Positions 1,707 through 64,000 of a stretch of DNA of 64,000 bases are shown here, piece by piece (the first letter of the stretch is position 1; the number at the start of each line of letters is the position of its first letter). This DNA is from an uncultured Acetatifactor sp. GTDB taxonomy: Bacteria > Bacillota > Clostridia > Lachnospirales > Lachnospiraceae. The notes under the pieces were generated by a model, which searched no databases, had not been told where the DNA came from, and worked only from the letters and a program-made list of their open reading frames with translations. The stretch lies in NCBI GenBank assembly GCA_910579755.1, contig CAJTVB010000011.1, positions 11,742 to 75,741 on the forward strand, written 5' to 3'. The translations under genes were made by a program, and so were the position numbers.

Positions 1707-1721
1707 CTTGTCCCTCCTCCC

Positions 1722-6961: not shown

Positions 6962-6973
6962 AAACGTCCCCGG

Positions 6974-7246
6974 CTATCCGCGCGTATACAGGCTGAAGGT
7001 AGACCATAACTGAGTCACAAATTCCACCATGCCGGTGATCATCCACTGTCCAAACAGGATCAGCGACAAAAAAATAGCAATAATTTTGGGCACAAATGTC
7101 AGCGTCTGCTCCTGTATGGAGGTTACCGTCTGAAAAATGCTGACAGACAAACCCACAATCAAAGACACCAGCAAAAGCGGCATAGCAGTTTTGATAATCA
7201 GGAAAAGAGCATCCCGCATAATATCCGCCACAGCATCGACTGTCAT
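6974..7246 (-). CDS. fliQ: Flagellar export apparatus protein FliQ
   Basis: 90-aa, two-TM protein in the fliP-fliQ-fliR order. Confidence 0.9.
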   Translation of the reverse strand: MTVDAVADIMRDALFLIIKTAMPLLLVSLIVGLSVSIFQTVTSIQEQTLTFVPKIIAIFLSLILFGQWMITGMVEFVTQLWSTFSLYTRG

Positions 7247-7267
7247 TTCAAGCTTCCTTTCTTTCTG

Positions 7268-8492: not shown

Positions 8493-8851
8493 TAACCCAC
8501 AACCTTCTTCACAGCCTCAAGCACGCGTTCCGGCGCAAAGGGTTTGACGATAAAATCCTTTGCGCCGGCCTGGATGGACTCGATCACCATCGCCTGCTGT
8601 CCCATGGCGGAACACATGATAACCTTTGCGCTTCCGTCAATCTTCCGGATCTCCTTCAGCGCCTGAATTCCATCCATCTCGGGCATGGTAATATCCATCA
8701 GCACAAGGTCGGGCTTAAGCTCTGTGTACTTTTCAACGGCCTTATGTCCATTTTCCGCTTCCCCGGCGACGGTATAGCCATTCTTGCCCAGAATGTCCTT
8801 GATCATCATCCTCATGAAAGCCGCATCATCACAAACCAAAATACCTGCCAT
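8492..8851 (-). CDS. cheY: Chemotaxis response regulator CheY
   Basis: 119-aa stand-alone receiver domain (VCDDAAFMR, LVLMDITMPEMDG, KDFIVKPF). Located between fliY and fliO as in the B. subtilis fla/che operon. Confidence 0.85.
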   Translation of the reverse strand: MAGILVCDDAAFMRMMIKDILGKNGYTVAGEAENGHKAVEKYTELKPDLVLMDITMPEMDGIQALKEIRKIDGSAKVIMCSAMGQQAMVIESIQAGAKDFIVKPFAPERVLEAVKKVVG

Positions 8852-8863
8852 TATCTCTTCCTC

Positions 8864-12622: not shown

Positions 12623-13422
12623 TACTCGTCACCTCCCGCGCCTTCCTCGGAAATGGTCCTGTCCTTGGGAGCCAGGAATGATTTCAGCTTTTCCTCAATT
12701 ACTCTGGGGTTTTCTCCCGCCTGAATGGACAAAAGCCCCTCGATCATAACTTCCTTCAGCACAACCTCCTCGCCGTTGTCAGCCTTCAGCTTATTTGACA
12801 CCGGTGTACAGATCCAGTTGGCAAGCAGGGAACCGTACAGCGTAGTGATCAGGGCCACAGCCATTGCAGGACCCAGATTCGCCACGTCATCCATATTGTA
12901 CAACATATTTACCAGACCTACCAGAGTACCGATCATACCCCAGGCAGGGCCCATGGCACCCAGTGTATCCCAGAATCCGCTGCACTTCTTATGCCGCTCT
13001 TCCAGACTGTTCATCTCTGTCTCCATGATGGCTCTGACCAGATCCGGATCCGTGCCGTCCACGATCAGCAAAATGCCCTTCTTCAGGAAGGGCTCATCCA
13101 TATCTGCCGCCGCTTCCTCCAGAGACAACAGACCATCCTTACGAGCCACATTGGACAACTCTATAATCTTTCGTATCATCTCTGCCGTGTCCAGAGCCGG
13201 CGACTTGAAGATCAGCGTAAAGCTCTTGAGCCCGGCCACAAAATCCGGCATGCTGACGGAAGCCAGTGTGGCAGAAAACGCACCGCCAAAGGTGATGAGC
13301 GCCGAAGGCGGGTCTATGTACCGGCCGATGTTCTGCAGCCCGGCATTAAAATGAATTCCGAGCACAAGCATGACCAGACAAATAACGATACCTGCTAATG
13401 ATGCTATATCCACAAAAACCAC
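12622..13422 (-). CDS. motA: Flagellar stator protein MotA
   Basis: 266-aa, four-TM MotA/TolQ/ExbB-type protein. Its stop overlaps the motB start. Confidence 0.9.
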   Translation of the reverse strand: MVFVDIASLAGIVICLVMLVLGIHFNAGLQNIGRYIDPPSALITFGGAFSATLASVSMPDFVAGLKSFTLIFKSPALDTAEMIRKIIELSNVARKDGLLSLEEAAADMDEPFLKKGILLIVDGTDPDLVRAIMETEMNSLEERHKKCSGFWDTLGAMGPAWGMIGTLVGLVNMLYNMDDVANLGPAMAVALITTLYGSLLANWICTPVSNKLKADNGEEVVLKEVMIEGLLSIQAGENPRVIEEKLKSFLAPKDRTISEEGAGGDE

Positions 13423-13443
13423 CTACCATTTTGCTCTTATTGA

Positions 13444-13629
13444 CTATTCCGCAAAAATATCCTTTCTGTACAATTTTACAAGATTTTTTATCTCTTGTCT
13501 ACTTTCTTTTACAATTATTTTCTTGCCTGTAGTAAGAGTGATCACCGTATCCGGCGTCTCCTCCACGATTTCAAACAGATGAGGGTTTACAAGGATCTTT
13601 ACTCCGTTGATTTTGGTCACCTCTACCAT
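13444..13629 (-). CDS. flbD: Flagellar protein FlbD
   Basis: 61 aa, MVEVTKINGVKILVNPHLFEIVEETPDTVITLTTGKKIIVKES, a typical FlbD sequence. It precedes motA as in Clostridia and spirochaetes. Confidence 0.8.
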   Translation of the reverse strand: MVEVTKINGVKILVNPHLFEIVEETPDTVITLTTGKKIIVKESRQEIKNLVKLYRKDIFAE

Positions 13630-13840
13630 AATCTTACCCTGCCTTTCTTCAAATCGACAAACCTTCGTCTGCCCCTGCAGACATTGTTTCCTGTCACCAA
13701 CGCTTTCGTCTCACGACCCCTTCCTTTCTATCATTACATACTCCCCTGCGCGCCGCATACAGCACCCCTCGCCTTTGTTCTTCTGAAGCGTTCCTGTCTG
13801 CCGGAGTATCTTTACCTCCAAACAAAGCTGTCCCCACGAT

Positions 13841-13871
13841 ACAAGAATAAGGGGCGGAAAACTTCCGTCCC
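13841..13871 (-). terminator. Hairpin plus U-rich tail about 60 nt downstream of flgE (attenuator or processing site)
   Basis: The minus strand reads GGGACGGAA-GTT-TTCCGCCCC followed by TTATTCTTGT. The stem is 9 bp with one G-U pair. Confidence 0.35.
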
Positions 13872-13930
13872 TTATTGTATCACATTTTACGAAGTATTGT
13901 GAGGGAAAAATGTACCATCTTTCACACCTG

Positions 13931-15736
13931 TTATCTCTTCAAATTAGTCAACTCTTCCAAAAGAGTGTCAGACACAGTTATAATACGACTATTCGCCTGA
14001 AATCCACGCTGGGTGGTGATCATTTCTGTGAACTCTGCGGACAGATCCACGTTGCTCATCTCCAGCTGTCCGGTGGACATATATCCGCCGTTGGCAGTGA
14101 CGTTTACACCGATACCGTCAAACTCACCGGAATTCAGCGTGGCAGAATAAAGGTTATCGCCGGATTTCTGCAGACCGGATGCGTTGGCAAAGGCCGCAGT
14201 GGCAATCTGTCCCAGCAGTCTGGTCATGCCATTGTCATAGCTGGCATAAATTCTGCCGTCCTGCTGAATGGACACGCCAATCATATCTCCCAGACGACGT
14301 CCCATTCCCAGGCCTTCCTCGTCACCGCTGGTGGCGGCCGCCGTAGAGGTTCCCTTGTTGTCGTACATGCCAAGTCCGGAAAGGTCCACCGTAATATTGG
14401 AGAAATTTCCTCCCAGAGCGGACAGGTTCATAACGGCGGTAGTCACCGTCTCCTGTCCCTGAATCCCTGCAAATTTACCGGTCTTGCCGTCAAAGGCAAC
14501 GATAGTGCCGTCAAATCTGCGTCCGGAAGTCTCGAAACTGGTCACATCCGTAGGGAAATGGGCCTGATCCGGATTGGTGGTGGTGTTTGTTCCGTTGGCC
14601 AGATTCAAAAGCATCTGCTCCACCGTGATCTGAGGATGAACCACATCAGCGCCGGCAGCATCCTGGCTGACAGGTGTATAGAGCAGATTCAGGAAATCAT
14701 CCGTGGAGCCTTCATAACCGTAAGCCTTTGCGATGGCATCCAGCTGATTCTGAACAGTTAAGGGTTCGGGAGGCGTTCCAGTAGTAAGCGTCGTCTCCGC
14801 ATCTCTGTCCAGCATATTGCCGCTTCCATCCACTATGGTAGCCAAATCTGCTATAATATTGCCGTCTTTATCCTTCAGCTGCTTTGTGTTGGTAGTATCC
14901 CAGCTGTAATTCTTTGTATCAATGGTCAGCTTGCCGGCGATATTCTGAGAGTTGCCTGCAGTTCCGAAAATGTTAGCGGCGCCTTCCTCAGAAGCCGAAT
15001 ATACCACCTTTCCTGTGGAATCCAGGATTCTGTCCAGCTCCAGGCTGTAATTGTTGACCCCGCCGGAATCCTCCGGTGAATCAGATTTCCGGAACACAAA
15101 TTTAGCCGTATAGGCATAGCCCAGAGCATCAAAGAAGTTCAGGTTCACCACCTTACCGTTCTTGCTGGTCACATCCTTATCGTTTTTGTCAATGATGCCG
15201 TCCATAACGGCCTGTGTGGTAGCCTCGGGAGGATAGGTCATATTGACGGCGCTCATGATCCGCAGTGCGGCCACGGTATCCTGCTTGATGTCTCCGGTCT
15301 CGTCGTCAACCTGCCAGCCCATTACGTTGTAGCCCGTACTGGTCATGGCCAGGTTTCCCGCACCGTCCACATAGAAAGAACCATCTCTGGTAAAGAAATT
15401 CTCTGTGCCGTTGTTTACTACAAAGAAATTGTCCCCGGTTATCATAATGTCAAAGGGATTGCCGGTGGACTGGCTGGAGCCCTGGCCGGTGATATTGACG
15501 TTGATGGCTCCGGATTTTACGCCCAATCCGATCTGTCTGGCGTTGGTACCGCCGGTGCCCGTAGTGGCATTGGCGCCGCTGGCCCTCTGGGTGGTCTGGC
15601 TCATCAGTTCGCTGAAAACGATGGAACTGGATTTGAAAGCCGTAGTGTTGACGTTGGCAATATTATTACCGATAACGTCCATTTTGGTCTGGTGGGTCTT
15701 CAATCCGGCCACACCAGAAAAAAGTGATCTCATCAT
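13931..15736 (-). CDS. flgE: Flagellar hook protein FlgE (long form, 601 aa)
   Basis: N-terminal rod/hook motif MMRSLFSGVAGLKTHQTKMDVIGNNIANVNTTAFK. C-terminal flagellar basal-body rod domain (EMITTQRGFQANSRIITVSDTLLEEL). Confidence 0.9.
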   Translation of the reverse strand: MMRSLFSGVAGLKTHQTKMDVIGNNIANVNTTAFKSSSIVFSELMSQTTQRASGANATTGTGGTNARQIGLGVKSGAINVNITGQGSSQSTGNPFDIMITGDNFFVVNNGTENFFTRDGSFYVDGAGNLAMTSTGYNVMGWQVDDETGDIKQDTVAALRIMSAVNMTYPPEATTQAVMDGIIDKNDKDVTSKNGKVVNLNFFDALGYAYTAKFVFRKSDSPEDSGGVNNYSLELDRILDSTGKVVYSASEEGAANIFGTAGNSQNIAGKLTIDTKNYSWDTTNTKQLKDKDGNIIADLATIVDGSGNMLDRDAETTLTTGTPPEPLTVQNQLDAIAKAYGYEGSTDDFLNLLYTPVSQDAAGADVVHPQITVEQMLLNLANGTNTTTNPDQAHFPTDVTSFETSGRRFDGTIVAFDGKTGKFAGIQGQETVTTAVMNLSALGGNFSNITVDLSGLGMYDNKGTSTAAATSGDEEGLGMGRRLGDMIGVSIQQDGRIYASYDNGMTRLLGQIATAAFANASGLQKSGDNLYSATLNSGEFDGIGVNVTANGGYMSTGQLEMSNVDLSAEFTEMITTQRGFQANSRIITVSDTLLEELTNLKR

Positions 15737-15811
15737 AGTGCTTGTTCCTCCTGAAATCGGAGCGTGCCCCTCTCGGTCAGTCGAGGGGCATAAGCCTCCG
15801 CAAAGGTCCGG

Positions 15812-16213
15812 CTATATAATTACCGCTCCGTTGATATTAGTGAATATGTTTTCGTTTGTTTCCGTGCTGTCCATTGCAGTGACTACCGTCTGATTCGGTA
15901 CGTTGACGATAAACGCCAGCTGATCCACGATCACCAGAGAATCTCTGATTCCCTTCCGCTCCGCTTTCTTCGCCCCGTCCTCCAGCCGCTCCAGCTGCCC
16001 GGCACTCAGTTCGATGTTTCGGTCATTCAACCTTCCCAGCGCATGTCTGGAAAATTTCAGGGTTCCATCCCCGCCCTGCAGGCTTCTGCTCTCCAGAATT
16101 TCCTGAAAGGAAAGACCGTCCCTGGTCTCGTGCGTGTCTGCCTTCTGGGGACTGCTTAAGTATTTTTCTGTCAACTGCTCAATGGAAAGATATCCGTTAT
16201 TCTGTATCTGCAT
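15812..16213 (-). CDS. Small 'flagellar operon protein' of unknown function found between flgD and flgE in Firmicutes
   Basis: 133 aa. The call rests on position and general resemblance to the conserved uncharacterised ORF at this site. No catalytic motif was recognised. Confidence 0.5.
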   Translation of the reverse strand: MQIQNNGYLSIEQLTEKYLSSPQKADTHETRDGLSFQEILESRSLQGGDGTLKFSRHALGRLNDRNIELSAGQLERLEDGAKKAERKGIRDSLVIVDQLAFIVNVPNQTVVTAMDSTETNENIFTNINGAVII

Positions 16214-16252
16214 CTTCCTTAAGCCCCCGTTCTGATCTGTCGGCCTGCGCTT

Positions 16253-17047
16253 TTACGCACCACCGTTCTCTGTGCCGCCTGATTCGTCCGGTTTTTCCGT
16301 TCCGCCCGGTTCCTCCGGCTTCTCAGTTCCGTCCGTATTTTCCCCGTCTCCCGGTTTCTCTGTTCCGTCCGGTTCTTCTGGCTTTTCCGCTCCGTCGGCT
16401 TCTCCTGCCGCCAGGCGCACTTCCTTCAGCTTCTCAATGTACTTGGCAAGCTTATCCTTGTTCTCCTTGGTGATAAAGGTCTTCTCATAGTCGCTCATCT
16501 CGTTGAAGGTCTTCTCCAGCTTGTCGATGGCATCTGCATCCGTCAGATCCACAGCTGCCAGAATCGGAAGCTTATTCATACCGATGGTAAATTCCTCCGC
16601 CTTCTTGTAAGCGTCGAAGTAAGTCTCGTCGAGCACAGTGTCCAGATCTTCCAGCGCATAAAGCTTCTCCTCGATGGAAAGCTTTGCCTTGCCGTTCTCG
16701 AATACCACATAGTCCACCCGGCCCTGCTTATACCCGGTATCTCCCGCCGCGTTGGTAGTCCTGATATAGACCTCCTTACCTACCAGAGAGCTTGCTCTCG
16801 CCAGATCGCTGCTGGCCGCCATATTCTGCATCTGCTCCACCTGGGAAAATTGTGCATACTGGGAAATATATTCCGTATTTGAAGTAGGCTCCAGCGGATC
16901 CTGATATTGCATCTGTGCCACCAAAAGCTGCAGAAATGCATCCTTATCCATACCGCTCTGCATCCCTGTGGCATTATTCTTTTTCAGGGAATTCTGAGAT
17001 TCTGTAGTGACGATTTTTCCGTCTTCTACCGGTGCCATTAAAGCCAT
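16253..17047 (-). CDS. flgD: Flagellar hook capping/assembly protein FlgD with an acidic P/E/G-rich C-terminal tail
   Basis: FLQLLVAQMQYQDPLEPTSNTEYISQYAQFSQVEQ is the canonical FlgD N-terminal motif. The tail carries repeated GTEKPEEP. Confidence 0.85.
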   Translation of the reverse strand: MALMAPVEDGKIVTTESQNSLKKNNATGMQSGMDKDAFLQLLVAQMQYQDPLEPTSNTEYISQYAQFSQVEQMQNMAASSDLARASSLVGKEVYIRTTNAAGDTGYKQGRVDYVVFENGKAKLSIEEKLYALEDLDTVLDETYFDAYKKAEEFTIGMNKLPILAAVDLTDADAIDKLEKTFNEMSDYEKTFITKENKDKLAKYIEKLKEVRLAAGEADGAEKPEEPDGTEKPGDGENTDGTEKPEEPGGTEKPDESGGTENGGA

Positions 17048-17089
17048 TACGCATTCTCCTTTCCTGTCCTTTTATTGAACGTTGGCCTA

Positions 17090-18532
17090 TCATGCCGTAT
17101 AGTCCACCGTACTTCCGTTGGCAGTCATAATTTCCGCTGCCAGTACATCCTCCTGTTCCATTTCCTCGACGGAAAAAGGATCATTCAGATCAATTCTTCT
17201 GGTCCGGGCTTTTCTTTCCGGTTCCCGGCCCTGGTTTCCGCGGCCCCTTCCCTGCTCCAGATTTCTCTCAAAGGCATGGGACTGAACCGTTACCTCGATA
17301 GCCTCCACCTTTACGCCCTGCTCCTCAAAGCTTTCCTTCAGCTGGATCATCTGGCTTTCCAGCGCAGATTTCACCGCCTCGTTCTGGGTGATAAAGTTCG
17401 CCGTAATCACGCCGCCCTTTGACGCCACCTGTACCTGCAGAGTGCCGAGACTGGCAGGATGCAGCTGCATTTCCAGATTTGTGAGCTCCGGTTTCAGGTT
17501 AATCCGCATATAGTCCATAACCTGGCGCATGATGTCCTGGGTGGATGTATCCCATTGACTGGCGGACAGCGCCTCGCTCCTTTGAAGCTGTGGCTGAAAT
17601 TGTTCCGCGCGCAGATTTTGAGCAAACAGATTCAGATTCTGATTTTCTCCGCTTTCCCGGTGGCGGCTTCCCTTTTCTTCTCCGGCGCCGGTCTGTTCAC
17701 CGGCATTTTCCCTGTTCCAGACCTGCTGTGTTGGAGTCTCCTCCTGCACCATGGTCTGCTCCGGCTCCCGGACTGCCTTCTGGCCCTGATCCACAGGCTC
17801 TTCAACCGAAGTTTTCTCCGGTATAATCCGGATATCCTCTGTAAGCTCTTCCGGAATCTCGGGGAGAGTCAAAGTCTCCTCCTGCGGCTGAGCTTCCTGC
17901 ACTTCTCCATTCTGCACCGAGATTTCCTTCAGCTGCTGTGCCAGCTCGTTTAACTGCTCTGGATTCAGCTGAAGCTCTCTGCCGCATTCCTGAAGTACGG
18001 TGCTCAGCTCTCCCATCAGCTCCCGATAGCTTCCGTACAGCTCCTCATTGGTCACAAGAGCACTGGAATCCTGCGCTCCTCCCACCTTCAGAATCAGTTC
18101 ACCCAAAGCCCGGGGATCCAAAACATCCAGCTGCTCCATTCCCAGCTCTTCCATGGCGGCGCTCAGTTCCTCCACCGTCACCCCAAAGGTATCCGCGATC
18201 TGTTCCATCAGCTCTGCAGCCGCCGGCCCCAGCACCTCCATGGCCGCTCTCAGCTCATCCTCCGAAAGCTCCCATGCCTCACCGTTTTCCTCCGCAGGCT
18301 CCTGCTTTTCGGTGCGTACCCGATGTGCGTCTCTGGCCTTCAGAGAATCACCCGGCACCTTTTTTACCGCCGCCCTGGACTCGGTTTCCTGGCTGCCCGA
18401 AGGCTCCTTCCCCGACTGGTTGTTCCAGACCGCCTGGAAACTGCCCCCTGTCACGTTTTTGGCTCCCGAGCCAGCCGCCGGCGCCAGATTGGTCAGGATG
18501 GAACTGACATCCTTTACCGATGTGTTTGTCAT
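17090..18532 (-). CDS. fliK: Flagellar hook-length control protein FliK
   Basis: C-terminal Flg_hook-type domain (LKPELTNLEMQLHPASLGTLQVQVASKGGVITANFITQNEAVKSALE). The start is placed at MTNTSVKD, which is preceded by AAAGGAGG. The ORF-track start at 18589 is probably an over-extension. Confidence 0.75.
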   Translation of the reverse strand: MTNTSVKDVSSILTNLAPAAGSGAKNVTGGSFQAVWNNQSGKEPSGSQETESRAAVKKVPGDSLKARDAHRVRTEKQEPAEENGEAWELSEDELRAAMEVLGPAAAELMEQIADTFGVTVEELSAAMEELGMEQLDVLDPRALGELILKVGGAQDSSALVTNEELYGSYRELMGELSTVLQECGRELQLNPEQLNELAQQLKEISVQNGEVQEAQPQEETLTLPEIPEELTEDIRIIPEKTSVEEPVDQGQKAVREPEQTMVQEETPTQQVWNRENAGEQTGAGEEKGSRHRESGENQNLNLFAQNLRAEQFQPQLQRSEALSASQWDTSTQDIMRQVMDYMRINLKPELTNLEMQLHPASLGTLQVQVASKGGVITANFITQNEAVKSALESQMIQLKESFEEQGVKVEAIEVTVQSHAFERNLEQGRGRGNQGREPERKARTRRIDLNDPFSVEEMEQEDVLAAEIMTANGSTVDYTA

Positions 18533-18617
18533 TTGTGGCCTCCTTTCCGCAATCTCCTGACTGCTTTTTTCGGGAAAAAAATCTCCCATATTTTTATCGG
18601 CCCCAAAGACAAAAACC

Positions 18618-19505
18618 TTAAGAGCTGGGATCCATCATTTTTGTCAAACGTGCGGCGACCTCTGCATCCATAGACTCCAGGATTTTACTCCTCTGCTCTG
18701 CCGTCATAGCCTCCAGAATCCGAGCCACCTGAGCCAAATCACTGGTCATTCCCTCAAAAATCTTAGCCGCCTTCTTTGCATTCATCTCTGTATAAGTTTT
18801 TACAAACTGTTTGATCTCTTCATCTTCCTCCTGCTGAAGCACCACCTGTTTATAGAGGAATTCTGCTGTGGCGGGATCCATGGCCTCATAATACTTCTTA
18901 AACTCCTCGATCCCGGGCCCCTTGTCGGAATAAACGACTTCTTCGTAAAACTCATTCATGATCCGCTGGAACTCCACCTGCTTTGCCTCAAACTCCTTCA
19001 GCCTTGCGACCTCCGCCTTCAGCTGCTCCAGGTCGCTGTCCTTAGAATTGGAGGCTGTCTGCACTCGATCCAGCTCCAGCTCCAGCTCCCGGATCCGGTC
19101 CACCGCCTCCTTCAGATCATTGTAGCCGCCATAGCTCTCCTGGGTAGTGGAATTCCCGCCAAGGGCAGAGCCCGGCAAAATCAGATTCAGTACAGGAACA
19201 TCCTTCAGAATCGGTGTGAGCACTCTGCTTCCGAATCCACCCACATCCAGCTTTACTATGACGCAGATCACAGCGATCCACAGCACCACAATCACTACTG
19301 TCGCCCCAAAGGTCACCAGGCCGTTTCCCTCGTCCATCCCCAAGGCTTCCTCCTGCTTGGCAATTTCCCTGGCCCGGCGCTTTGCCTCCTTTTTCTGCTC
19401 CTTCTGTTCCTTTTTCAGCTGCTTTTTATCATCCAGGACCTTCTGCTTTTCATCTTCTGTCCCGACTGCCTCCGGCACTGCTTCCTTTGCTTTTGCTTTT
19501 GCCAT
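18618..19505 (-). CDS. YlxF/MotE-like flagellar protein (K/E-rich N-terminus, one TM helix, coiled coil, MgtE-N/FliG-like helical C-terminus)
   Basis: It lies between fliJ and fliK as ylxF does in B. subtilis. The C-terminal sequence LAQVARILEAMTAEQRSKILESMDAEVAARLTKMM resembles the MgtE N-terminal fold. The start at MAKAKAKE follows GAGGAGAG. Confidence 0.5.
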   Translation of the reverse strand: MAKAKAKEAVPEAVGTEDEKQKVLDDKKQLKKEQKEQKKEAKRRAREIAKQEEALGMDEGNGLVTFGATVVIVVLWIAVICVIVKLDVGGFGSRVLTPILKDVPVLNLILPGSALGGNSTTQESYGGYNDLKEAVDRIRELELELDRVQTASNSKDSDLEQLKAEVARLKEFEAKQVEFQRIMNEFYEEVVYSDKGPGIEEFKKYYEAMDPATAEFLYKQVVLQQEEDEEIKQFVKTYTEMNAKKAAKIFEGMTSDLAQVARILEAMTAEQRSKILESMDAEVAARLTKMMDPSS

Positions 19506-19513
19506 AACTCTCC

Positions 19514-19969
19514 TCATTTCCCGGCGCTTCTCCGCTGTCCGTAAGTATAACTGGTAAGCTCGTCGATCTCCTTCCCCTCCTGCCTCTTCTCTTCCATTAG
19601 GAATGCGTCAAAGGCCTTTTCCTTCAGAGTCTCATGAGTTTTCCGCTCCATCATCACTTCCGTCAAGCGAATCCTTGCCTGCTCCAGATTTTTTTCTGCC
19701 GCCGCCACACGAAGGCGCTGCTCCGCAATATAATCCTCCATCCGCTGAATCGCGGTTCTGTTCTCTTCGATTTTACCCACATCCAGTGCTCCCGCTAAAA
19801 GCTCCTGGGCCCTCCGCTCGTATCCGTCCTTCCTCTGGAAAAGCTGCTTAAGCCGCTCCTCCTCCCGGTCCAGCGCCGCCCGTGCCGCGGAAAACTCCTG
19901 CTTTGCCTGGGTCTCCATCTTCATTTTTATATTCAGGATACTCTGCATGGAGTATCGAAATCGCGCCAT
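19514..19969 (-). CDS. fliJ: Flagellar export chaperone-like protein FliJ
   Basis: 151-aa coiled-coil protein directly downstream of fliI. The N-terminus FRYSMQSILNIK... is typical of FliJ. Confidence 0.7.
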   Translation of the reverse strand: MARFRYSMQSILNIKMKMETQAKQEFSAARAALDREEERLKQLFQRKDGYERRAQELLAGALDVGKIEENRTAIQRMEDYIAEQRLRVAAAEKNLEQARIRLTEVMMERKTHETLKEKAFDAFLMEEKRQEGKEIDELTSYTYGQRRSAGK

Positions 19970-20024
19970 ACCGCCTGTTCTCCGCCTTTTTTACACTTTC
20001 ATGCATCACGGCGCCACAGATTGT

Positions 20025-21344
20025 CTACTCGTCAAACAATCCGTGAAGCATTGACACACTTGTCTCAAATTCAAATTTCTCATCCACATCCTGACACAAA
20101 AATTGATTTACTGCATCAATCTTGGATATGGCATAATCGATGGAAGGATTACTGCCGGACTTATAGGCGCCGATATTGATCAGATCCTCCGCCTCATTAT
20201 AGGTGGCAAGCACATTTTTCAGCCTGCCCGCCACCTGCTTGTGATCCTTTTCGGCAATCTGACTCATACACCGGGAAATACTCTGCAAAATGTCGATTGC
20301 CGGATAATGATTCTTATGCCCCAGCTTTCTGTCCAACATGATATGACCGTCAAGAATACTTCTGGCCGTATCCGTGATGGGCTCATTGAAATCGTCTCCG
20401 TCTACCAAAACCGTGTACAATCCGGTGATAGAGCCCCTGGAGGCCCTTCCCGCCCGCTCTAAAAGCTTGGGCATTTCCGAATATACGCTGGGAGGATAGC
20501 CTCTGCTCACCGGCGGTTCGCCGCTGGCCAGGCCGATCTCTCTCTGTGCCATGGAAAAACGGGTCAGGGAATCCATCATAAGCAATACATCCTTCCCCTG
20601 GTCTCTGAAATATTCCGCTATGGCCGTAGCCGTCTTGGCCGCCTTATTTCTCTCCAGGGCAGGTCTGTCCGAAGTGGAAACCACTACCACGGACCTTCTC
20701 ATGCCTTCTTCTCCCAGATCCCGTTCAATAAACTCTCTTACTTCCCTGCCTCGTTCGCCGATCAGCGCGATCACATTAATGTCCGCCCTGGTATTTCTGG
20801 CAAACATTCCCATCAAGGTGGATTTTCCCACTCCGGAGCCGGCAAAAATACCGATACGCTGCCCCTTTCCCACAGTGATCAATCCGTCTACGGCTTTTAC
20901 CCCCAGGGGAAGAACCTCGTCAATAATCTCCCTGCTCATGGGAGCGGGAGGCGCCGCCTCCACCAGATAGGGAATCCCGTCGGGAACCGTCCCGTCCAGA
21001 AAGCGCCCCAGTCCGTCCAGCGTCTTTCCCAGCAGCTCGTCACTCACCGACACCTGCAGAGGATTTCCTGTATTTTCCACAATACATCCCAGCCCGATCC
21101 CGTCCACGGAATCATAGGGCATCAGCAGTGTCTTTCTGTCTCGAAAGCCCACCACCTCCGCCATAATAGGCTGCCGCTCTCCCCGGCTTTCGGGAACGAT
21201 CCTGCAGATATCCCCCAGCCTGGCGTCAGGCCCCGAAGACTCTATGGTCAGCCCTACCACATTCACGACCTTTCCCAATCTGCGGAAACAGGTGCTTTCC
21301 ATTAATTTATAATACTTTTCCAAATTTACAGAAACAGCTTCCAA
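20025..21344 (-). CDS. fliI: Flagellum-specific ATPase FliI
   Basis: Walker A GSGVGKSTLMGM and Walker B VLLMMDSLTR. 439 aa, F1-ATPase beta-like. Confidence 0.95.
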   Translation of the reverse strand: MEAVSVNLEKYYKLMESTCFRRLGKVVNVVGLTIESSGPDARLGDICRIVPESRGERQPIMAEVVGFRDRKTLLMPYDSVDGIGLGCIVENTGNPLQVSVSDELLGKTLDGLGRFLDGTVPDGIPYLVEAAPPAPMSREIIDEVLPLGVKAVDGLITVGKGQRIGIFAGSGVGKSTLMGMFARNTRADINVIALIGERGREVREFIERDLGEEGMRRSVVVVSTSDRPALERNKAAKTATAIAEYFRDQGKDVLLMMDSLTRFSMAQREIGLASGEPPVSRGYPPSVYSEMPKLLERAGRASRGSITGLYTVLVDGDDFNEPITDTARSILDGHIMLDRKLGHKNHYPAIDILQSISRCMSQIAEKDHKQVAGRLKNVLATYNEAEDLINIGAYKSGSNPSIDYAISKIDAVNQFLCQDVDEKFEFETSVSMLHGLFDE

Positions 21345-21362
21345 AAGATCCCTCCTGCCGCT

Positions 21363-22226
21363 TTATTCCCTGGACCAGGACAATAAAGCCAGCTTCTGCT
21401 TCAATTCAGCCAGCTGCGTGCCCAAACCACAGTCAAATATACCGCCGTCCGTCTCAATCAGGCATTCATTTTTTTCCAGCGACATATCCTCTGTCACTTC
21501 CACTGCACAACTGCCCGCTCCCCCCTCTGTGATGATCTGCTTCTTCTGCATACTCACATAAGGGTAATCCTCTCTGGACACCCGGATGGTAAAGCTGCGG
21601 CTTCCGTCCGCCTTGCGCATGGCAGCAGTAATCAGATATGTCAAAATATCACGATAGGAGGAAAGCTCCACATGGAAAAAATGCTGATAGATCTCCGTGA
21701 TGGCATCCACCAGCCTGGGTTCCAGCTCCTGAAGCTGCTGCTGGTAAAAGGCTTCCAGCTGCTTTTCTTTTACCTGATATTCTTTTTTAACAGCTTCAAC
21801 CTGGGCTTCAGCCTGAGCCTTCGCCTGGGTCAAGCCCTCGTTATGTCCCTGCTTTCTGGCTGTTTCCCGGATCTGCTCCTTCTCGGCTTCTGCCGCTGCC
21901 ACGGCTTCCCTGCGAATATTCTCCGCCTCCTCCCGCGCCTGGGCCAGCAGGCTCTCCGCCTGCTCCCGGGCCTGGGACTCGATCCTTTTGGCCTCCTCAT
22001 TGGCCTTAATCACGTTGCCGCTTTCCGATTCTCCGGCGGAGGACACTTCTATGGTCTCCGCCGCCAGCCCCGAAACAAAGCCTTCTTTCATCGGCTGCTT
22101 CTCCTGGAGCTCAGCCATTTCTCTTCTCTGCCGAAGTACTCCGTTAGTGTCAATAACTCTTTTTTCATCCGACACTGTCACGGTAAATACCTGTTTTACC
22201 AGATTCCTAGACAACAATTTCGTCAC
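21363..22226 (-). CDS. fliH: Flagellar assembly protein FliH
   Basis: 287 aa with an E/A/Q-rich coiled coil followed by a FliH-type C-terminal domain. It sits between fliG and fliI and overlaps the fliG 3' end. Confidence 0.7.
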   Translation of the reverse strand: MTKLLSRNLVKQVFTVTVSDEKRVIDTNGVLRQRREMAELQEKQPMKEGFVSGLAAETIEVSSAGESESGNVIKANEEAKRIESQAREQAESLLAQAREEAENIRREAVAAAEAEKEQIRETARKQGHNEGLTQAKAQAEAQVEAVKKEYQVKEKQLEAFYQQQLQELEPRLVDAITEIYQHFFHVELSSYRDILTYLITAAMRKADGSRSFTIRVSREDYPYVSMQKKQIITEGGAGSCAVEVTEDMSLEKNECLIETDGGIFDCGLGTQLAELKQKLALLSWSRE

Positions 22227-23238
22227 CTCCGCCTCTGGAAATCACGATCTCCCCTGAATCCTCCAGCTTCCTGATAATATTTACAATCTTCTGCTGGGCT
22301 TCCTCTACATCCTTCATGCGGACAGGGCCCATAAATTCCATATCTTCCTTGATCATAACAGCCAGACGCTTGGACAGGTTGTCGAAGATAGCGTTCTGAA
22401 CCTGCTCATTGGCATTCTTCATGGCGATTGCCAGATCATTGTTATCCACATCACGCAGCACACGCTGAATGGCTCTGTTGTCCAGCAGCAACACATCCTC
22501 GAACACAAACATTTTCTTTCTGATCTCGTCGGCCAGCTCCGGCTCCTCGATCTCCAGAGTTTCCATAATATGGCGCTCTGTGCTCCTGTCTACGGTATTC
22601 AGGACCTCCACTACTGCGTCTACGCCGCCGATAATAGTGTAATCCTGATTTACCAGGCTGGCCATCTTGGATTCCAGCACCTTCTCCACTTCCTTGATCA
22701 CATCCGGACTGGTACGATCCATAACCGCAATACGCTTGGCCACATCCGCCTGTCTCTCGGCAGGCAGGCCTGAAAGGATCATTGCGGCCTGAGATGCCGA
22801 CAGATAAGACAAAATCAGCGCAATCGTCTGGGGATGTTCGTCCTGAATAAAGTTGATCAGCTGTGAAGGGTCTGTCTTGCGTATAAACTCGAAAGGCTTC
22901 ACCTGCAGGGAGGCCGTCAGCTTGCCGATAACATCCATTGCCTTTTCGGCTCCCAGCGCCTTTTCCAGCAGATCCCTGGCATAATTAATGCCGCCCTCTG
23001 CAATGTATTGCTGAGCCAGACACACCTCGTAAAACTCATCGATGATCTGTTCCTTTATCTGAGGCGTCACACTCCGCGTATTGGCAATCTCCAGCGTCAG
23101 CTCTTCTATCTCGTCCTCCTTCAGATGCTTGAAAATTCCTGCCGATCTCTCCGGCCCTAAAGCTATCAGAAGGATCGCGGCTTTTTGAAGTCCCTTCAGG
23201 CTCTGCTCCATCTCCGTATTAGCAGCATTAGCAGCCAT
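22207..23238 (-). CDS. fliG: Flagellar motor switch protein FliG
   Basis: Conserved FliG sequence (KAAILLIALGPE, MFVFEDVLLLD, charged C-terminal torque helix). The start is set at MAANAAN; the ORF-track start is 5 codons upstream. Confidence 0.9.
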   Translation of the reverse strand: MAANAANTEMEQSLKGLQKAAILLIALGPERSAGIFKHLKEDEIEELTLEIANTRSVTPQIKEQIIDEFYEVCLAQQYIAEGGINYARDLLEKALGAEKAMDVIGKLTASLQVKPFEFIRKTDPSQLINFIQDEHPQTIALILSYLSASQAAMILSGLPAERQADVAKRIAVMDRTSPDVIKEVEKVLESKMASLVNQDYTIIGGVDAVVEVLNTVDRSTERHIMETLEIEEPELADEIRKKMFVFEDVLLLDNRAIQRVLRDVDNNDLAIAMKNANEQVQNAIFDNLSKRLAVMIKEDMEFMGPVRMKDVEEAQQKIVNIIRKLEDSGEIVISRGGGDEIVV

Positions 23239-59825: not shown

Positions 59826-60383
59826 TCACTCCAAAACCCTCTGATCATCGCACACCAAACCAAAATATATCGTATCCACACCGTTTCCTCTATGGTTCTT
59901 CAAAACGGCCAGCCTCTGATATCCCCTCTTGTCCAGCTCGTGAAGCTGGGCCTCGTTCAGGGACCATGTGCGCGTGGATATTCTGGGACACTGATACTTC
60001 TTTGGCATCTCCCGCTCCATGAAACTGTAAAGTTCCTTCATGACACCCTTTCCCCGGCAGTCTTTTCTGACACAAACCGTGGTTATGTAAAGAGATGTAC
60101 CAAAATCCTCCAGCGCCTCGCACAGATAATCCTTTTTAAAGGTCATAAATCCTACCATGCGGTCCCCCTCCAGGGCCGCCAGGAATTCCTGGGCAATCAT
60201 TTCTTTAAAATAAGAGTGAGGAAGCGCCTGCTCCTTCGTTCCGTCCACCTTCAGCTGTTTCTGGGATGAGCTCTCTCTTGCTGACAAACTGGGATAGAAC
60301 TCCTGGTCGCATTCACATAAGATCTCCCAGATCTGTTCCTTCTCCTTCGATGTCAGAATATTTCCCTTGTACTGTACCCTCAT
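59826..60383 (-). CDS. GNAT-family N-acetyltransferase
   Basis: Motif A-like VCVRKDCRGKGVMKELY. The start at MRVQYKG is preceded by AGGAGG at 5-nt spacing, so the ORF-track start at 60557 is probably an over-extension. Confidence 0.65.
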   Translation of the reverse strand: MRVQYKGNILTSKEKEQIWEILCECDQEFYPSLSARESSSQKQLKVDGTKEQALPHSYFKEMIAQEFLAALEGDRMVGFMTFKKDYLCEALEDFGTSLYITTVCVRKDCRGKGVMKELYSFMEREMPKKYQCPRISTRTWSLNEAQLHELDKRGYQRLAVLKNHRGNGVDTIYFGLVCDDQRVLE

Positions 60384-60575
60384 TTCATCCTCCTGACTCA
60401 GTCTATGACACCTATTCATATCCCGGATAAGCAGCAAATGCTTCCACCCCATCCGGAAGCCCGCGTTAAACCACTTCATTACCGTAAACGGAAGCTGATA
60501 CCGGGTAAACACATCTGCCACCGCTATTATTATATCCTCTCCGGCTTCATAGAACAACTATCCCGGCATAACCGT

Positions 60576-62795
60576 CTAGGGCCGAAACCCATGGATATAC
60601 AGCCTGTGTGCCCGCTTCTCCACCGGTTCCGTGTCGCATATATGTAAAAATTCCTTCTTCAGGCCTGCATATTCCTCGTCGCTCAGTCCCACATTTTTAT
60701 AATAAATCAGACTGGCATTGGCGAAATTATCTGCCAGACTGGCATTATTTTTCTCATCGGAATAAACACTCTCCACTCGGATATCCTCATAGCCGATTTC
60801 TTCCAGAAGCTCCTCCAGCTCTTCCTTTTCCGGATAGTATGCCGGAAATATCCAATGCTTGAACCGCTCTGTCAGCCCCGTCCTCTTAATGGCCTCCCTG
60901 GCCGCCTTATGCAGACCGGCATAGGTTCCGAAGCCTCCCTGATGCACGGCCAGCTCTCCTCCCGGCGTCAGAGCCTCAAACAGCCTTCGGTAAGCCTCCT
61001 TCGGCTCCCGCATCCAGTGCATTACAGCGTTGGAAAAAATCAAATCATATTGGCATTTCTCATGCATGTTCATAATATCCCGGGCCAGGAATTCAATGCT
61101 GCCTCTGTAATCATGCTGCAAAGCAGAATTCCCCGCTAAATCAGGCGCCTCCTGTAAAGAGACCTCCTCCATGTCCTCCCTCTCCTGCCGCAAAAGCTCC
61201 TGATAATTGGCTCTGGCCGTTTCCACCTGGCTCTCCGAAATGTCAAAAGCCGTAACCTCCATATCCCGGTTTTTCATCCACATGGCAATAGTAGTCTTTC
61301 CTGAGCCGCAGCCCACATCCAGCACCCGGCGGCATCCGCTGAAATCGGTGGTATCGATCAGATAGGTTCCCTGTTTTTGCTGGGTCTGGGAGGATTTATC
61401 ATAGGCCGCACCGTCATAACGTACCTCCATTTCCTTGACGGGACGTCTGCTGATGACATTGACAATTCCCAGCGCCTGTTCCACCTGCTCTCCGTTTCTC
61501 TGACAGCGGTTCTGCAGCCTCTCATATATTTCCAAAAGCTCCTTGACACGGTAATAATTCTGTCGGATCACATCATCCCGGGCCACCGACAGATAGATCA
61601 TTTCCTTCCAGGGCTCGTCCAGCTGAAACTGTTCTCTGACATATGCGGAAATCTCTGTGTTTTCCGCCAGATGATCCTTATGCCACAGCTCCAGGTTGCT
61701 GTTGTGGCAGATCATATCGTACACCTGGGGAAAAGAAAGCTGCAGTCCCATCAGCAGAAGCTCCAGTACACGGAAATCCGGGCTGCAGGAGGCCTCAGAC
61801 TCCCTGCTCTCCGGCAGAGGCTTCACCGACAGCACCAGCTGCATCATGTTCATAAGCCTCTTGATGGCTCGGGGATTCTTATTGGTAGACAGCTTTACAA
61901 TGGATTCCACTACCTCCTCGTACTTTGTGTAATTGTATTCCCTTTCAAAAAAAATCATCTTACGCAGCCGCCGCATAACCATGGGTAAAATCTGGTATTT
62001 GGACATGGGAATCACATAAGGAACCTGTATCAGCTTGTCAAAGAAATCCTGTTGAATATTACGCTTATTTATACTTCTCTTACCGTATTTCTCCTCCACG
62101 CCGCAGGCTACAATGTCATAATCAATAGCAAGGATGAAGATGCATTTCCGGATATCAAATAAATTCTTCAGAGCCTCCAGCAGCGTCACCGCCATTTTGG
62201 GCTCAAGCCTGTCCAAGTCATCTACAAATATCAAAAAAGCGTTGTCCGTGACCCCGTTGCGCTTTTCCTCCACCTCGCCGGTCAGAAAGGTCTCCAGGCT
62301 GTCCTTTGCCTTCCGGATACTTCCCTGGGAGCTTCCCGCCGAAAACACCTGCCCCAGCAGCTCGTCGCTATGCTCACTGGTCACATTTACCAAATCCAGC
62401 GCCACGCTGGAAAAAATCTTCAGGCAGTTCTTCAGACTTTCCTTCCTGTGCTCCACATTCTGCCTCTGCACCAGCTTCTCAAAATGCTCCTCCATCTGGG
62501 CAATCAGGCTCATAACCAGCTTTCTGACCGCCTGCTCGCAATCGTTTTCCAAAAACAGCTCCCAGGTATTCAGCCAGATAGGCTCATACCGCTCCTGGGG
62601 CGGCAGTGTCTCGCTGCAGAGACAGTTCTCCAGAATTTTCATAAAGGAAGATTTTCCGCTGCCCCACTCTCCCTGCAAGGCTATGGTCACCGGCGTATCA
62701 CAGCTTTTGATAAAATCGCACAGCGCCCTCACGTATCTCTCGATTCCAAATTCATCCTGCTCCAGCGTTTCCACCGGAATATCCCTGTATTCCAC
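60576..62795 (-). CDS. Fusion protein: N-terminal KAP-family P-loop NTPase plus C-terminal class I SAM-dependent methyltransferase (739 aa)
   Basis: KAP part: Walker A GEWGSGKSS, Walker B LIFVDDLDRL and NPRAIKRLMN. MTase part: motif I VLDVGCGSGKTT, then FDISESQ, and post-I/II DLIFSNAVMHW...LTPGGEL. It is one uninterrupted ORF. The GTG start is 7 nt after AGGAGG. Confidence 0.75.
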   Translation of the reverse strand: MEYRDIPVETLEQDEFGIERYVRALCDFIKSCDTPVTIALQGEWGSGKSSFMKILENCLCSETLPPQERYEPIWLNTWELFLENDCEQAVRKLVMSLIAQMEEHFEKLVQRQNVEHRKESLKNCLKIFSSVALDLVNVTSEHSDELLGQVFSAGSSQGSIRKAKDSLETFLTGEVEEKRNGVTDNAFLIFVDDLDRLEPKMAVTLLEALKNLFDIRKCIFILAIDYDIVACGVEEKYGKRSINKRNIQQDFFDKLIQVPYVIPMSKYQILPMVMRRLRKMIFFEREYNYTKYEEVVESIVKLSTNKNPRAIKRLMNMMQLVLSVKPLPESRESEASCSPDFRVLELLLMGLQLSFPQVYDMICHNSNLELWHKDHLAENTEISAYVREQFQLDEPWKEMIYLSVARDDVIRQNYYRVKELLEIYERLQNRCQRNGEQVEQALGIVNVISRRPVKEMEVRYDGAAYDKSSQTQQKQGTYLIDTTDFSGCRRVLDVGCGSGKTTIAMWMKNRDMEVTAFDISESQVETARANYQELLRQEREDMEEVSLQEAPDLAGNSALQHDYRGSIEFLARDIMNMHEKCQYDLIFSNAVMHWMREPKEAYRRLFEALTPGGELAVHQGGFGTYAGLHKAAREAIKRTGLTERFKHWIFPAYYPEKEELEELLEEIGYEDIRVESVYSDEKNNASLADNFANASLIYYKNVGLSDEEYAGLKKEFLHICDTEPVEKRAHRLYIHGFRP

Positions 62796-62927
62796 GGCAG
62801 CCCCTCCTATTGTCCGTCAAACTCTCAGGCATCCTTCGTTTTCGTACATTTAAACCCAAATCTCCGTTTTCGGATTCGTTTCCTGTATCTTCCGCTTTAA
62901 GTTCTCACGCTTGCTATGCGCCGGATC

Positions 62928-63491
62928 TTAAAGGTCTTCACGCTTGTCCTCCGCCGGCGTGCCCCGGAATATCCGGCACACGCCCCTCCAAAGCCAGTAT
63001 ATGAGAAATCCCAAAATCGTGCCCAGAGTGTTAGTCAAAATATCGTCAATCTGAAAGTAGCCCCTTCTGGTAAGCAGCTGAAGGGATTCGATCCCCAAGC
63101 TGGTAACCGCCCCGATCAAAGTACAGCAGAACAAATTCCGGGCACGGCGAAAAACCCATGGACAGGCAAAGCCATAGGGAATAAACAAAAGAATATTCTC
63201 CACCACAAAAGCATTATTCCTGTCATTGATTCCCCAGGTGGAAAACAGCTCCAGATCCATAATACCTCTTCTGGTTCCGCTCTCCCGGGACAAAAAAGTA
63301 ATGGTCAGCATTACTGTCAGGTAAACCGCAAATACGGCCACGGGCACATACTTGCCTTTTACTCCTCCCTCTTTTCCGCGCCAGAGCCTGGCAGCCAGAA
63401 GGCAGACTACCGCTGCGGGCAGCCCTACCGCCAGACTGTATGGAAGATACCTGACCATAGACAACATATCTTTATATATATATTCAATCAT
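62928..63491 (-). CDS. VanZ-family membrane protein
   Basis: 187 aa with 4-5 TM segments. NILLFIPYGF and DDILTNTLG are VanZ-like motifs. Confidence 0.7.
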   Translation of the reverse strand: MIEYIYKDMLSMVRYLPYSLAVGLPAAVVCLLAARLWRGKEGGVKGKYVPVAVFAVYLTVMLTITFLSRESGTRRGIMDLELFSTWGINDRNNAFVVENILLFIPYGFACPWVFRRARNLFCCTLIGAVTSLGIESLQLLTRRGYFQIDDILTNTLGTILGFLIYWLWRGVCRIFRGTPAEDKREDL

Positions 63492-63585: not shown

Positions 63586-64000
63586 CTATCGGAAACGATC
63601 CCAGTTTTCTCCCGCATGATCCCACTTATCCTTTTCCTCAAACAGCCTGTCGTTCATCCAGGCTACCGCATCCGTCACACCGTCCTCTTCAAAGGGAAAC
63701 TCCGCTGTTTCCTTCTCTTCCTCCGGTGTCTTGAAAAAATTAAAGGGCTCCGGCCAGACAGTGCACCTGAGCCGCTTTCCTTCCTCCCCCGAAACGCCCT
63801 CCAGACGGTACCGCATCCCCTGACAGCAACCGGTAAACTCCGTCTTTTTTAAAAATTCCATTGATAATATATCTTCACGCCGTATCATGTCGAACACTTT
63901 CCACCCATTCCCATGGGGCTGATATTTAAAAAGGCTCCGGCGCCCCTTTTGCCGGTCAAAGGATTCAGCAAAAGCTATGCCAGAGCCTCCATATTCAGTA
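63586..64000 (-). CDS. Partial CDS, hypothetical protein (the reading frame stays open to the window edge)
   Basis: The frame containing ...GWKVFDMIRREDILSMEFLKKTEFTGCCQGMRYRL... has no stop between 63897 and 64000. The ORF-track GTG start is therefore probably internal. No motif was recognised. Confidence 0.4.
   Translation of the reverse strand, partial: TEYGGSGIAFAESFDRQKGRRSLFKYQPHGNGWKVFDMIRREDILSMEFLKKTEFTGCCQGMRYRLEGVSGEEGKRLRCTVWPEPFNFFKTPEEEKETAEFPFEEDGVTDAVAWMNDRLFEEKDKWDHAGENWDRFR

Follow-up and report, generated by a model that had tools for sequence, protein, structure and literature searches.

The locus described here lies in a 64,000-nucleotide (nt) stretch of DNA from an uncultured Acetatifactor sp. 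of the Lachnospiraceae (assembly GCA_910579755.1, contig CAJTVB010000011.1, positions 11,742 to 75,741). This whole stretch is referred to as the window; coordinates are positions in it unless a related locus is named, and the operon genes lie on its minus strand. The first gene (60576..62795) encodes a KAP-family P-loop nucleoside triphosphatase (NTPase) fused to a class I S-adenosylmethionine (SAM)-dependent methyltransferase. The second (59826..60383) encodes a GNAT N-acetyltransferase of 185 amino acids (aa), and together they form a two-gene operon. The original prediction, made from the letters of the window, centred on the fusion, possibly as a single-gene effector, and mentioned the GNAT as a possible member of the same module. 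The fusion is real, but it is not the defining unit. The conserved core is the pair of methyltransferase and GNAT rather than the KAP-methyltransferase fusion, and the GNAT is an obligate partner of the methyltransferase: an orthologous GNAT adjoins the methyltransferase gene in 36 of the 37 loci that have room for a neighbour. KAP is one interchangeable regulator: the pair is also found free of any NTPase, and no fewer than three N-terminal modules besides KAP occur with it.

The fusion gene and its two enzymatic halves

As had been read originally, the fusion gene is a single 739-aa open reading frame (ORF); it lies on the minus strand, with a GTG start and a TAG stop. A ribosome-binding site read from the sequence (AGGAGG, 62803..62808, minus strand) lies 7 nt before the GTG, and the N-terminus MEYRDIP lines up with the N-termini of 41 homologues. 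All of the KAP and methyltransferase motifs quoted in the original prediction are present, and a profile hidden Markov model (HMM) check supports both domains above the Pfam cut-offs. KAP_NTPase matches aa 21-320 (E=1.9e-36), and Methyltransf_31, 25, 12, 11, and 23 match aa ~486-672 (E 1e-13 to 2e-16), each of the five exceeding its own cut-off. The AlphaFold2 (AF2) model of the protein has a mean predicted local distance difference test score (pLDDT) of 81.8. A search of 5.8 billion proteins returned ~79 clusters (P0001-P0079) that contain the full-length fusion at 99-100% query coverage and at identities down to 29%. Each of them stems from a Clostridia-type genome or metagenome assembly and has a generic name only, and the matches from P0080 on are KAP-only proteins. 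The architecture also recurs in about 13 of 185,579 species-representative genomes, mostly Lachnospiraceae and other Bacillota, together with one Izemoplasmatales and one distant Coriobacteriales. With ~79 independent clusters, 13 species genomes, and a linker region that aligns without a break across the homologues, the notion that an assembly, sequencing, or frameshift artefact joined two genes can be set aside with near certainty.

Conservation in the fusion was read from an alignment of 42 sequences. The catalytic motifs of both halves are invariant (Walker A, DDLDR, NPR..K, DxGCGxG, D518, and SNAxxHW), a pattern that points to purifying selection on both as active enzymes. Mean pairwise identity within the KAP class is 51-53% in the P-loop core, 46% in the methyltransferase, and 51% in the GNAT. 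The fast-diverging parts are two helical regions, aa 86-180 (25%) and aa 326-455 (28%). Because they diverge fast while the enzymatic cores stay conserved, they are the best candidates for a surface that recognizes a trigger.

The KAP domain occupies aa 1-325 (61821..62795, minus strand), as seen from PADLOC matches and from Pfam PF07693 (126.3 bits, cut-off 20, with positions 4-288 of the 293 in the profile covered). Its Walker A motif GEWGSGKSS (aa 42-50; 62646..62672, minus strand) has G42, W44, G45, G47, K48, and S50 invariant in all 42 sequences. The same holds for D192, D193, L194, D195, and R196 of Walker B, LIFVDDLDRL (aa 188-197; 62205..62234, minus strand), and for N307, P308, R309, and K312 of the KAP C-terminal motif NPRAIKRLMN (aa 307-316; 61848..61877, minus strand). 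In KAP NTPases the stretch from Walker A to Walker B often, though not always, includes transmembrane helices. The earlier reading that such a hydrophobic insertion is missing here was borne out: the fast-evolving insert (aa 86-180; 62256..62540, minus strand) is soluble, and it is helical in the AF2 model, with low pLDDT at aa 136-157. No transmembrane segment was found in the fusion by Kyte-Doolittle hydropathy, the top 19-residue window (1.53) lying in the core beta-strand CIFILAIDYD. The other fast-evolving region is a variable all-helical domain that links the NTPase to the methyltransferase (aa 326-455; 61431..61820, minus strand; helices 339-449 in the AF2 model) and is common to KAP-only relatives up to about aa 450-470. 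These relatives match aa ~5-460 and then continue into unrelated 120-200-aa tails without Pfam domains. Within PADLOC, the N-terminal ~390 aa match PDC-S20 (E=6.2e-32), PifA (3e-28), and QatA (5e-20). A PDB profile search with the fusion gave only methyltransferase matches and no solved KAP relative, and a Foldseek search with the full-length model was likewise dominated by the methyltransferase domain and placed no KAP structure.

The methyltransferase domain (aa 456-739 and the stop codon; 60576..61430, minus strand) was delimited by Pfam, the PDB profile search, and Foldseek. It is a class I enzyme by its VLDVGCGSG motif, its invariant D518 as the acidic residue that closes strand 2, and Foldseek probabilities of 1.00 to many class I enzymes. 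In SAM-binding motif I (VLDVGCGSGKTT, aa 491-502; 61290..61325, minus strand) the residues D493, G495, C496, G497, G499, and T502 are invariant, and the motifs FDISESQ and PGGEL are also present. By profile, the nearest solved protein is 3ccf, an uncharacterised protein from Anabaena (E=1e-21 with the fusion profile and 5.6e-28 with the non-KAP profile). It is followed by the carboxyl methyltransferases JHAMT, Tam, CmoM, and BioC, and phosphoethanolamine N-methyltransferases also score highly in the PDB profile search. The best Foldseek matches of the AF2 model are small-molecule methyltransferases. The carboxylate of the JHAMT substrate is anchored and deprotonated by a Gln from the N-terminal helix together with a His(-Trp) that follows strand 4, and JHAMT mutated at these residues is inactive (PMC8526772). 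The methyltransferase described here shares with JHAMT the class I fold, the Gln in the N-terminal lid, and the 'HW' after strand 4. Gln472 (codon 61380..61382, minus strand), in the lid motif Y-D-x-S-S-x-T-Q, aligns with the catalytic Gln of JHAMT (chain 9xyo). In the motif DLIFSNAVMHW (aa 584-594; 61014..61046, minus strand; S588, H593, and W594 invariant), His593-Trp594 align with JHAMT His114/115-Trp115/116 in alignments to 3ccf and JHAMT. Neither Q472 nor H593-W594 varies in the alignment of KAP-fused methyltransferases or in that of the non-KAP ones and, because they correspond to the catalytic residues of JHAMT, we infer by homology that the enzyme is a carboxyl O-methyltransferase.

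Since this methyltransferase clade has motifs of its own (HQGG, YP-x-YYP, and AGLLPYL), its substrate probably differs from those of JHAMT, Tam, BioC, and CmoM. 3ccf additionally has the GG-x-G and YFP motifs of the clade. In contrast to the enzyme described here, none of JHAMT, Tam, BioC, CmoM, and 3ccf is GNAT-paired or NTPase-fused. The label 'Tam/UbiE-like' given in the original prediction was only roughly apt: Tam is among the near solved relatives, but 3ccf and JHAMT are nearer. The fusion is not a Tam, BioC, or UbiE equivalog, its scores falling below the NCBIfam cut-offs (84.8 against 184.95 for BioC TIGR02072 and 52.7 against 320 for Tam NF010703, with UbiE-type models likewise far below theirs). 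A role as a DNA methyltransferase in restriction-modification, BREX, or MADS systems was rejected as well; the conserved columns contain no (D/N/S)PP(Y/F) or PCQ/ENV motif, and the nearest folds are small-molecule enzymes. The PADLOC match to mad2 is limited to the generic SAM-binding part (positions 274-418 of 492), and no other Mad, Brx, or Pgl genes were found nearby among the window ORFs or in a PADLOC census of neighbours. An acidic insertion of ~25 aa (EDMEEVSLQEAPDLAGNSALQHDY; about 61098-61175, aa ~541-566) with low pLDDT lies within the methyltransferase and is lacking in almost all homologues.

The methyltransferase-GNAT pair and its N-terminal modules

The GNAT gene starts with ATG at 60383, behind an AGGAGG ribosome-binding site read from the sequence (60389..60394, minus strand), and its product matches Pfam Acetyltransf_1 (PF00583; E=1.3e-11, 45.2 bits against 20.7). 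The AF2 model (pLDDT 91) has GNAT topology and a Foldseek probability of 1.00 to GNATs, and R110, within the acetyl-CoA loop motif R-x-x-G, is invariant. Its nearest structures are acetyltransferases of amino-acid analogues (ArsN/PAT, YncA) and N-alpha-acetyltransferases (RimI, Ard1, Naa30). All Foldseek matches fall between about E 1e-9 and 1e-7 across many subfamilies, and no substrate class was assigned from them. The GNAT family comprises 71 orthologue clusters, all at E<1e-40 and with no tail of distant matches, and is thus about as large as the fusion family with its ~79 clusters. Named hosts among the protein matches include Bacillus alkalicellulosilyticus for a GNAT (P0187) and Antribacter for a methyltransferase (P0203).

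Between the fusion stop and the GNAT start lies a spacer of exactly 192 nt (60384..60575, minus strand), the distance that had been noted originally. In most relatives, by contrast, the GNAT start and the fusion stop overlap by 11 nt. No riboswitch or other RNA element was found by Rfam in the spacer or upstream, in the window or at 13 related loci. The GNAT frame is open across almost the whole spacer (a 243-aa ORF from TTG 60557). A TATAAT box with a weak -35 element (TTGTTC, 17-nt spacing) is seen on the minus strand at about 60515-60545; because of this the GNAT may have its own promoter at the window locus.

Orthology of the GNAT was called with an HMM built from neighbouring GNATs, and loci were counted only if there was room for a neighbour. 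Among KAP-type loci with flanking sequence, the GNAT adjoins the fusion in all 17 distinct cases, one further locus ending at a contig edge. The three standalone methyltransferase loci (L093, L094, and L113) all have it as well. A metagenome scan seeded with non-KAP methyltransferase domains found it as the next gene in 15 of 16 cases (11 of the ~600-aa P-loop class, 2 with unclassified or cut N-termini, and 2 cyclase-fused), the exception being a 1-kb fragment. It is also adjacent at the cyclase-methyltransferase locus of Halobellus limi. Conversely, this GNAT adjoins none of about 67 loci of KAP-only relatives. The suggested check of gene linkage thus came out clearly in favour of a common module, at odds with a single-gene effector. 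In the Coriobacteriales locus (L071, 26% identity) the downstream ORF is only a weak, non-orthologous GNAT-like match, and the locus is treated as an exception to the pairing. A ~180-aa GNAT directly downstream is the usual order; in the most divergent clade the GNAT is directly upstream. The order is inverted in L007 and L113 and convergent in L021. The pair can be defined by a methyltransferase of this clade, either free-standing or forming the extreme C-terminus of its protein, and an orthologous GNAT encoded next to it; the window locus contains such a pair. Its family is rare and patchy, with members in Bacillota, haloarchaea, and high-GC (probably actinobacterial) sequences. Cultured carriers are Halobellus limi CGMCC 1.10331, Petrocella sp. 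FN5, and the mouse-gut isolate 1xD42-67.

The modules that precede the methyltransferase were surveyed by an exhaustive phmmer search with the methyltransferase domain against 1.84 billion representative proteins, which gave 60 matches below 1e-30. The architectures, supported by Pfam, are standalone proteins (~250-300 aa), KAP fusions (~700 aa), class III cyclase fusions (~513-520 aa), proteins of ~835-876 aa that open at Walker A, and TIR-bearing proteins of 615-1303 aa. A 796-aa fusion of WD40 and an FtsK/SpoIIIE-like module to the methyltransferase was found as one protein without genomic context. In every fusion the methyltransferase sits at the extreme C-terminus. A search with the methyltransferase domain alone matched the standalone methyltransferases of L093, L094, and L113 (258-273 aa) over their whole length at 27-41% identity. 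The ~600-aa P-loop modules all belong to one family, to which TIR is an optional N-terminal addition, and most P-loop-methyltransferase proteins open directly at Walker A, without another effector domain. A rough neighbour-joining tree of the methyltransferase domains, which has no support values, interleaves the architectures. This interleaving suggests that N-terminal modules have been repeatedly gained, lost, or exchanged. One 981-aa protein (P0212, no locus) carries a KAP NTPase with two tandem methyltransferase domains (aa 450-722 and 723-981).

The cyclase class is represented in culture by the megaplasmid of Halobellus limi CGMCC 1.10331 (L111; NZ_CP031312.1, record 71377-74286). Here a 520-aa class III cyclase-methyltransferase (WP_103992540) is followed by the GNAT (WP_103992539) and then by a metallophosphoesterase (WP_103992538), which could be a cyclic-nucleotide phosphodiesterase of the same module. 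A decayed copy was found on a Haloarcula marina plasmid in a plasmid collection. An apparent frameshift divides the GNAT into two short ORFs in both cyclase-methyltransferase loci from metagenomes (L106 3776-4158; L107 8248-8630). At L107, RhuM lies upstream and a tRNA gene follows about 1.4 kb further on, downstream, which suggests a decaying copy on a genomic island.

Genomic surroundings and known relatives

Directly upstream of the fusion gene, on the same strand, the window contains a gene for a VanZ-family membrane protein (62928-63491; Pfam E=2e-23), and further upstream of the operon a 103-aa ORF without a Pfam match (63586-63897, minus strand). Neither is kept beside the pair in the other loci. 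The chromosomal position of the pair varies between lineages. Pfam scans of the neighbours and the PADLOC census (130 ORFs) identified no conserved third gene and no consistent pathway or transporter neighbour. Enrichment in defence islands, the test proposed originally, is not clearly evident around the pair in the census, which lacks a proper background. The only strong PADLOC match among the neighbours is at one locus of a gut lineage (L001). There a TIR-WD40 protein of 1067 aa (PDC-S05, E=3e-141) and a series of almost unannotated giant genes (752, 1135 (Tubulin_2), 678, and 1354 aa) flank the pair. These features span 6752-9955 and 12893-22235 of that locus, and they may represent a separate uncharacterised defence-like cluster. 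Elsewhere an integrase lies beside the pair (L007), RhuM and a tRNA gene are close to it (L107), or the contig carries HTH_36/DUF6017 (L094). The standalone pair of L113 adjoins a divergently encoded 224-aa protein with a minimal nucleotidyltransferase-like GSxxxxxxD/E motif (1510-2184, minus strand; MntA-like). Genes of amino-acid or peptide metabolism neighbour several non-KAP pairs (L098 1408-2451, L113 195-1508, L097 2828-4408, and L102 5603-6574). They encode an S58 (DmpA-type) aminopeptidase, an S12 beta-lactamase/Pab87-type protein, an asparaginase, and a pyridoxal phosphate (PLP)-dependent enzyme 8 nt after the GNAT. These neighbours offer a weak lead toward an amino-acid-like substrate.

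As the original prediction had supposed, no characterised KAP-methyltransferase protein was found: names in the protein search are generic, NCBIfam scores lie below every cut-off, and none is described in the literature searched. The same literature contains no methyltransferase-GNAT pair with KAP, STAND, or TIR, within a limited coverage that is not proof of absence. The parts seen of two papers, one on NTP-dependent conflict systems (eLife 2020) and one on BREX diversity (NAR 2026), contain no such pair. Among known proteins, the closest in outline are KAP NTPases with C-terminal regions of unknown function that act as antiphage proteins, namely EF_KAP and three gut-metagenome examples (PLoS Biol 2026, PMC13552941). 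Their function needs Walker B and the C-terminal region, and their sources include Lachnospira and Faecalibacterium (PMC13552941). The fusion shares with this group the N-terminal KAP NTPase, a C-terminus that differs and is exchangeable, and a similar host range. Unlike the fusion protein, EF_KAP has transmembrane helices, and the C-terminal regions of its group are without a recognisable domain, whereas the fusion has a methyltransferase with a predicted intact catalytic site and an obligate GNAT gene.

PDC-S20, PifA, and QatA contain the same KAP P-loop core, and their matches to the fusion are confined to the NTPase part. The PDC-S20 match covers model positions 16-382 of 464, and PADLOC has no curated cut-off for this model; PDC-S20 models describe ~450-aa proteins without a methyltransferase, and PDC-S20 is itself only a defence candidate. 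PifA of the F plasmid has 720 aa and a C-terminal half unrelated to that of the fusion, and the fusion was assigned neither to PifA nor to mad2, whose matches are partial. Membership in the Qat system was rejected: the fusion scores 79.6 bits on the NCBIfam model for QatA against a cut-off of 600, and there is no QatB, QatC, or QatD nearby, the neighbours being VanZ and GNAT. The likeness to STAND/NLR-like immune proteins (Avs, bNACHT) is one of logic. There too a nucleotide switch is fused to exchangeable enzymatic or sensor domains, and relatives with TIR, P-loop, and methyltransferase exist. However, the constant part here is an enzyme pair with a separate GNAT gene instead of a repeat-type sensor, and the NTPase itself is swapped among KAP, the ~600-aa P-loop module, and the FtsK-like module. 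The pair would be an enzymatic cassette new to the literature searched, built on a known kind of switch and placed among the predicted NTPase-based conflict-type systems.

Possible roles of the pair

The reading that we tentatively prefer, at somewhat less than an even chance, is that of an NTPase-gated two-enzyme conflict module which N-acetylates and carboxyl-methylates a common substrate. At rest, the NTPase would be held in an off state. A trigger would be sensed by the fast-evolving helical regions (aa 86-180 and 326-455), leading to nucleotide-dependent activation or assembly. This would license the fused methyltransferase and the GNAT to modify one shared substrate, N-acetylating an amine and converting a carboxylate into its methyl ester. 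An amino-acid-like metabolite is one candidate substrate and the terminus of an aminoacyl group or protein another, and the outcome would be a response of the conflict or anti-phage type. The most economical assignment makes the enzyme pair the output and the NTPase the switch, because all KAP- and most P-loop-methyltransferase proteins are without another effector domain. The conflict role is favoured because the KAP half resembles PDC-S20, PifA, and QatA, because antiphage KAP proteins provide a precedent, and because TIR and cyclase occur as partners. The patchy distribution of the fusion (about 13 of 185,579 species), the varying position of the pair, and TIR-WD40, integrase, RhuM, or mobile-element neighbours at some loci were also counted as signals of this type. 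A broader version of the idea, in which the pair 'double-caps' a metabolite or terminus and is plugged onto varied triggers in an unrecognised modular immune-type system that extends from gut Clostridia to haloarchaea, is possible but is viewed with more doubt.

Several observations weigh against a conflict module. To our knowledge, methyl- and acetyl-transfer to small molecules is not an established immune effector chemistry. The substrates of the two enzymes may be separate ones. In the TIR-P-loop-methyltransferase proteins, the methyltransferase holds the position usually taken by a sensor. Branches of the neighbour-joining tree are without support values, and the 'standalone' representatives may include fragments of genes. 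The neighbours are for the most part housekeeping genes (such as PFOR, Der, GltX, HflX, and SpoIVA), and the PADLOC census of 130 neighbour ORFs at 24 loci gave few matches, mostly generic helicases and ATPases. In L005 and L091, which are from one lineage, the pair occupies a fixed syntenic site and in this resembles a chromosomal gene under stable inheritance more than a defence cassette that moves between genomes. Searches of 50,697 phage genomes and of 2.9 million viral contigs did not find the pair either, a result that is neutral for defence and lends no support to mobility.

The same surroundings would suit a metabolic or detoxification pair that caps an amino-acid-like compound, either toxic or a signal, at both its amine and its carboxylate, so as to detoxify or export it or to make a signal, the N-terminal modules being metabolic regulators with no part in phage defence. 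For both enzymes the nearest characterised relatives have small molecules as substrates: Tam, JHAMT, BioC, and CmoM act on carboxylates, and ArsN, PAT, and YncA N-acetylate toxic amino-acid analogues. The mostly housekeeping neighbourhoods, the stable synteny within a lineage, and the amino-acid and peptide-metabolism genes at several loci (S58, S12, asparaginase, and the PLP enzyme) fit as well. However, a metabolic methyltransferase would be an unusual fusion partner for KAP, the ~600-aa P-loop module, and TIR, whereas conflict systems typically show such fusions, and the KAP class is sparse and patchy, as its count among the species genomes shows. Neither a conserved pathway or transporter neighbour nor a riboswitch or other metabolite-linked regulator was found in the scans described above. 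We regard this explanation as rather unlikely, though it fares best of the alternatives to a conflict module.

A toxin-antitoxin-like arrangement is improbable. TacT and AtaT are GNAT toxins that acetylate aminoacyl-tRNA. By analogy, the GNAT would be a toxin and the methyltransferase would neutralise it in a type VII-like manner, by binding or methylating the GNAT or its product, with the fused modules releasing the toxin for abortive infection. The gene arrangement fits this idea: a larger upstream gene precedes a ~180-aa GNAT, usually with overlapping stop and start, as in antitoxin-toxin operons and specifically as in TacT, AtaT, KacT, and ItaT, where the GNAT lies directly downstream of its partner gene and often overlaps it. 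The pairing is strictly one-to-one, and a free-standing pair exists that was captured repeatedly by sensor-type NTPases. One standalone pair lies beside the minimal nucleotidyltransferase-like gene, and another is on a mobile-element-like contig. Yet the upstream partner is a methyltransferase in place of a DUF1778/ribbon-helix-helix (RHH)-type antitoxin, for which neither PADLOC nor Pfam gave a match. The GNAT itself has no PADLOC match and no specific likeness to those toxins in sequence or structure, and the first 50 Foldseek matches of its model do not include TacT, AtaT, or KacT. The gene order is not fixed either, as the inverted loci L007 and L113 and the convergent L021 show. Moreover, the complete small-molecule-type active site, with its carboxylate-binding Gln and His-Trp, would be needless in a mere binder.

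Less probable still is the reverse polarity, in which the methyltransferase (with the GNAT) would be a sensor of SAM and acetyl-CoA pools or of a phage compound and would control the N-terminal module, the effectors being TIR, the cyclase, or NTP consumption. Conserved sensors with swapped effectors are the Avs-type pattern, and a constant C-terminal module behind variable N-termini mirrors it. TIR-P-loop-X immune proteins normally sense at the C-terminus, where the methyltransferase always lies, and TIR and cyclase are recognised effector or signal-generating domains. However, apart from the methyltransferase and GNAT, no effector domain is present in the KAP class or in most members of the ~600-aa P-loop class, and free-standing pairs have nothing to regulate. 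In addition, the invariant residues are catalytic ones and not merely those that bind the cofactor.

A role of KAP NTPases in phage defence was shown very recently, for proteins whose C-terminal regions have no recognisable function (PMC13552941). In the family described here, the fused module is a recognisable enzyme with an intact predicted catalytic site and an obligate second enzyme, which makes the output of a KAP switch directly testable. The pair occurs in bacteria as well as in archaea and follows N-terminal modules of at least four kinds, which marks it as a portable functional cassette. Should the pair be metabolic, it would represent an unusual NTPase-, TIR-, or cyclase-coupled modification of a metabolite. 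If it is an immune effector, capping of a small molecule or terminus would be a new chemistry for conflict systems and would give KAP NTPases a defined output.

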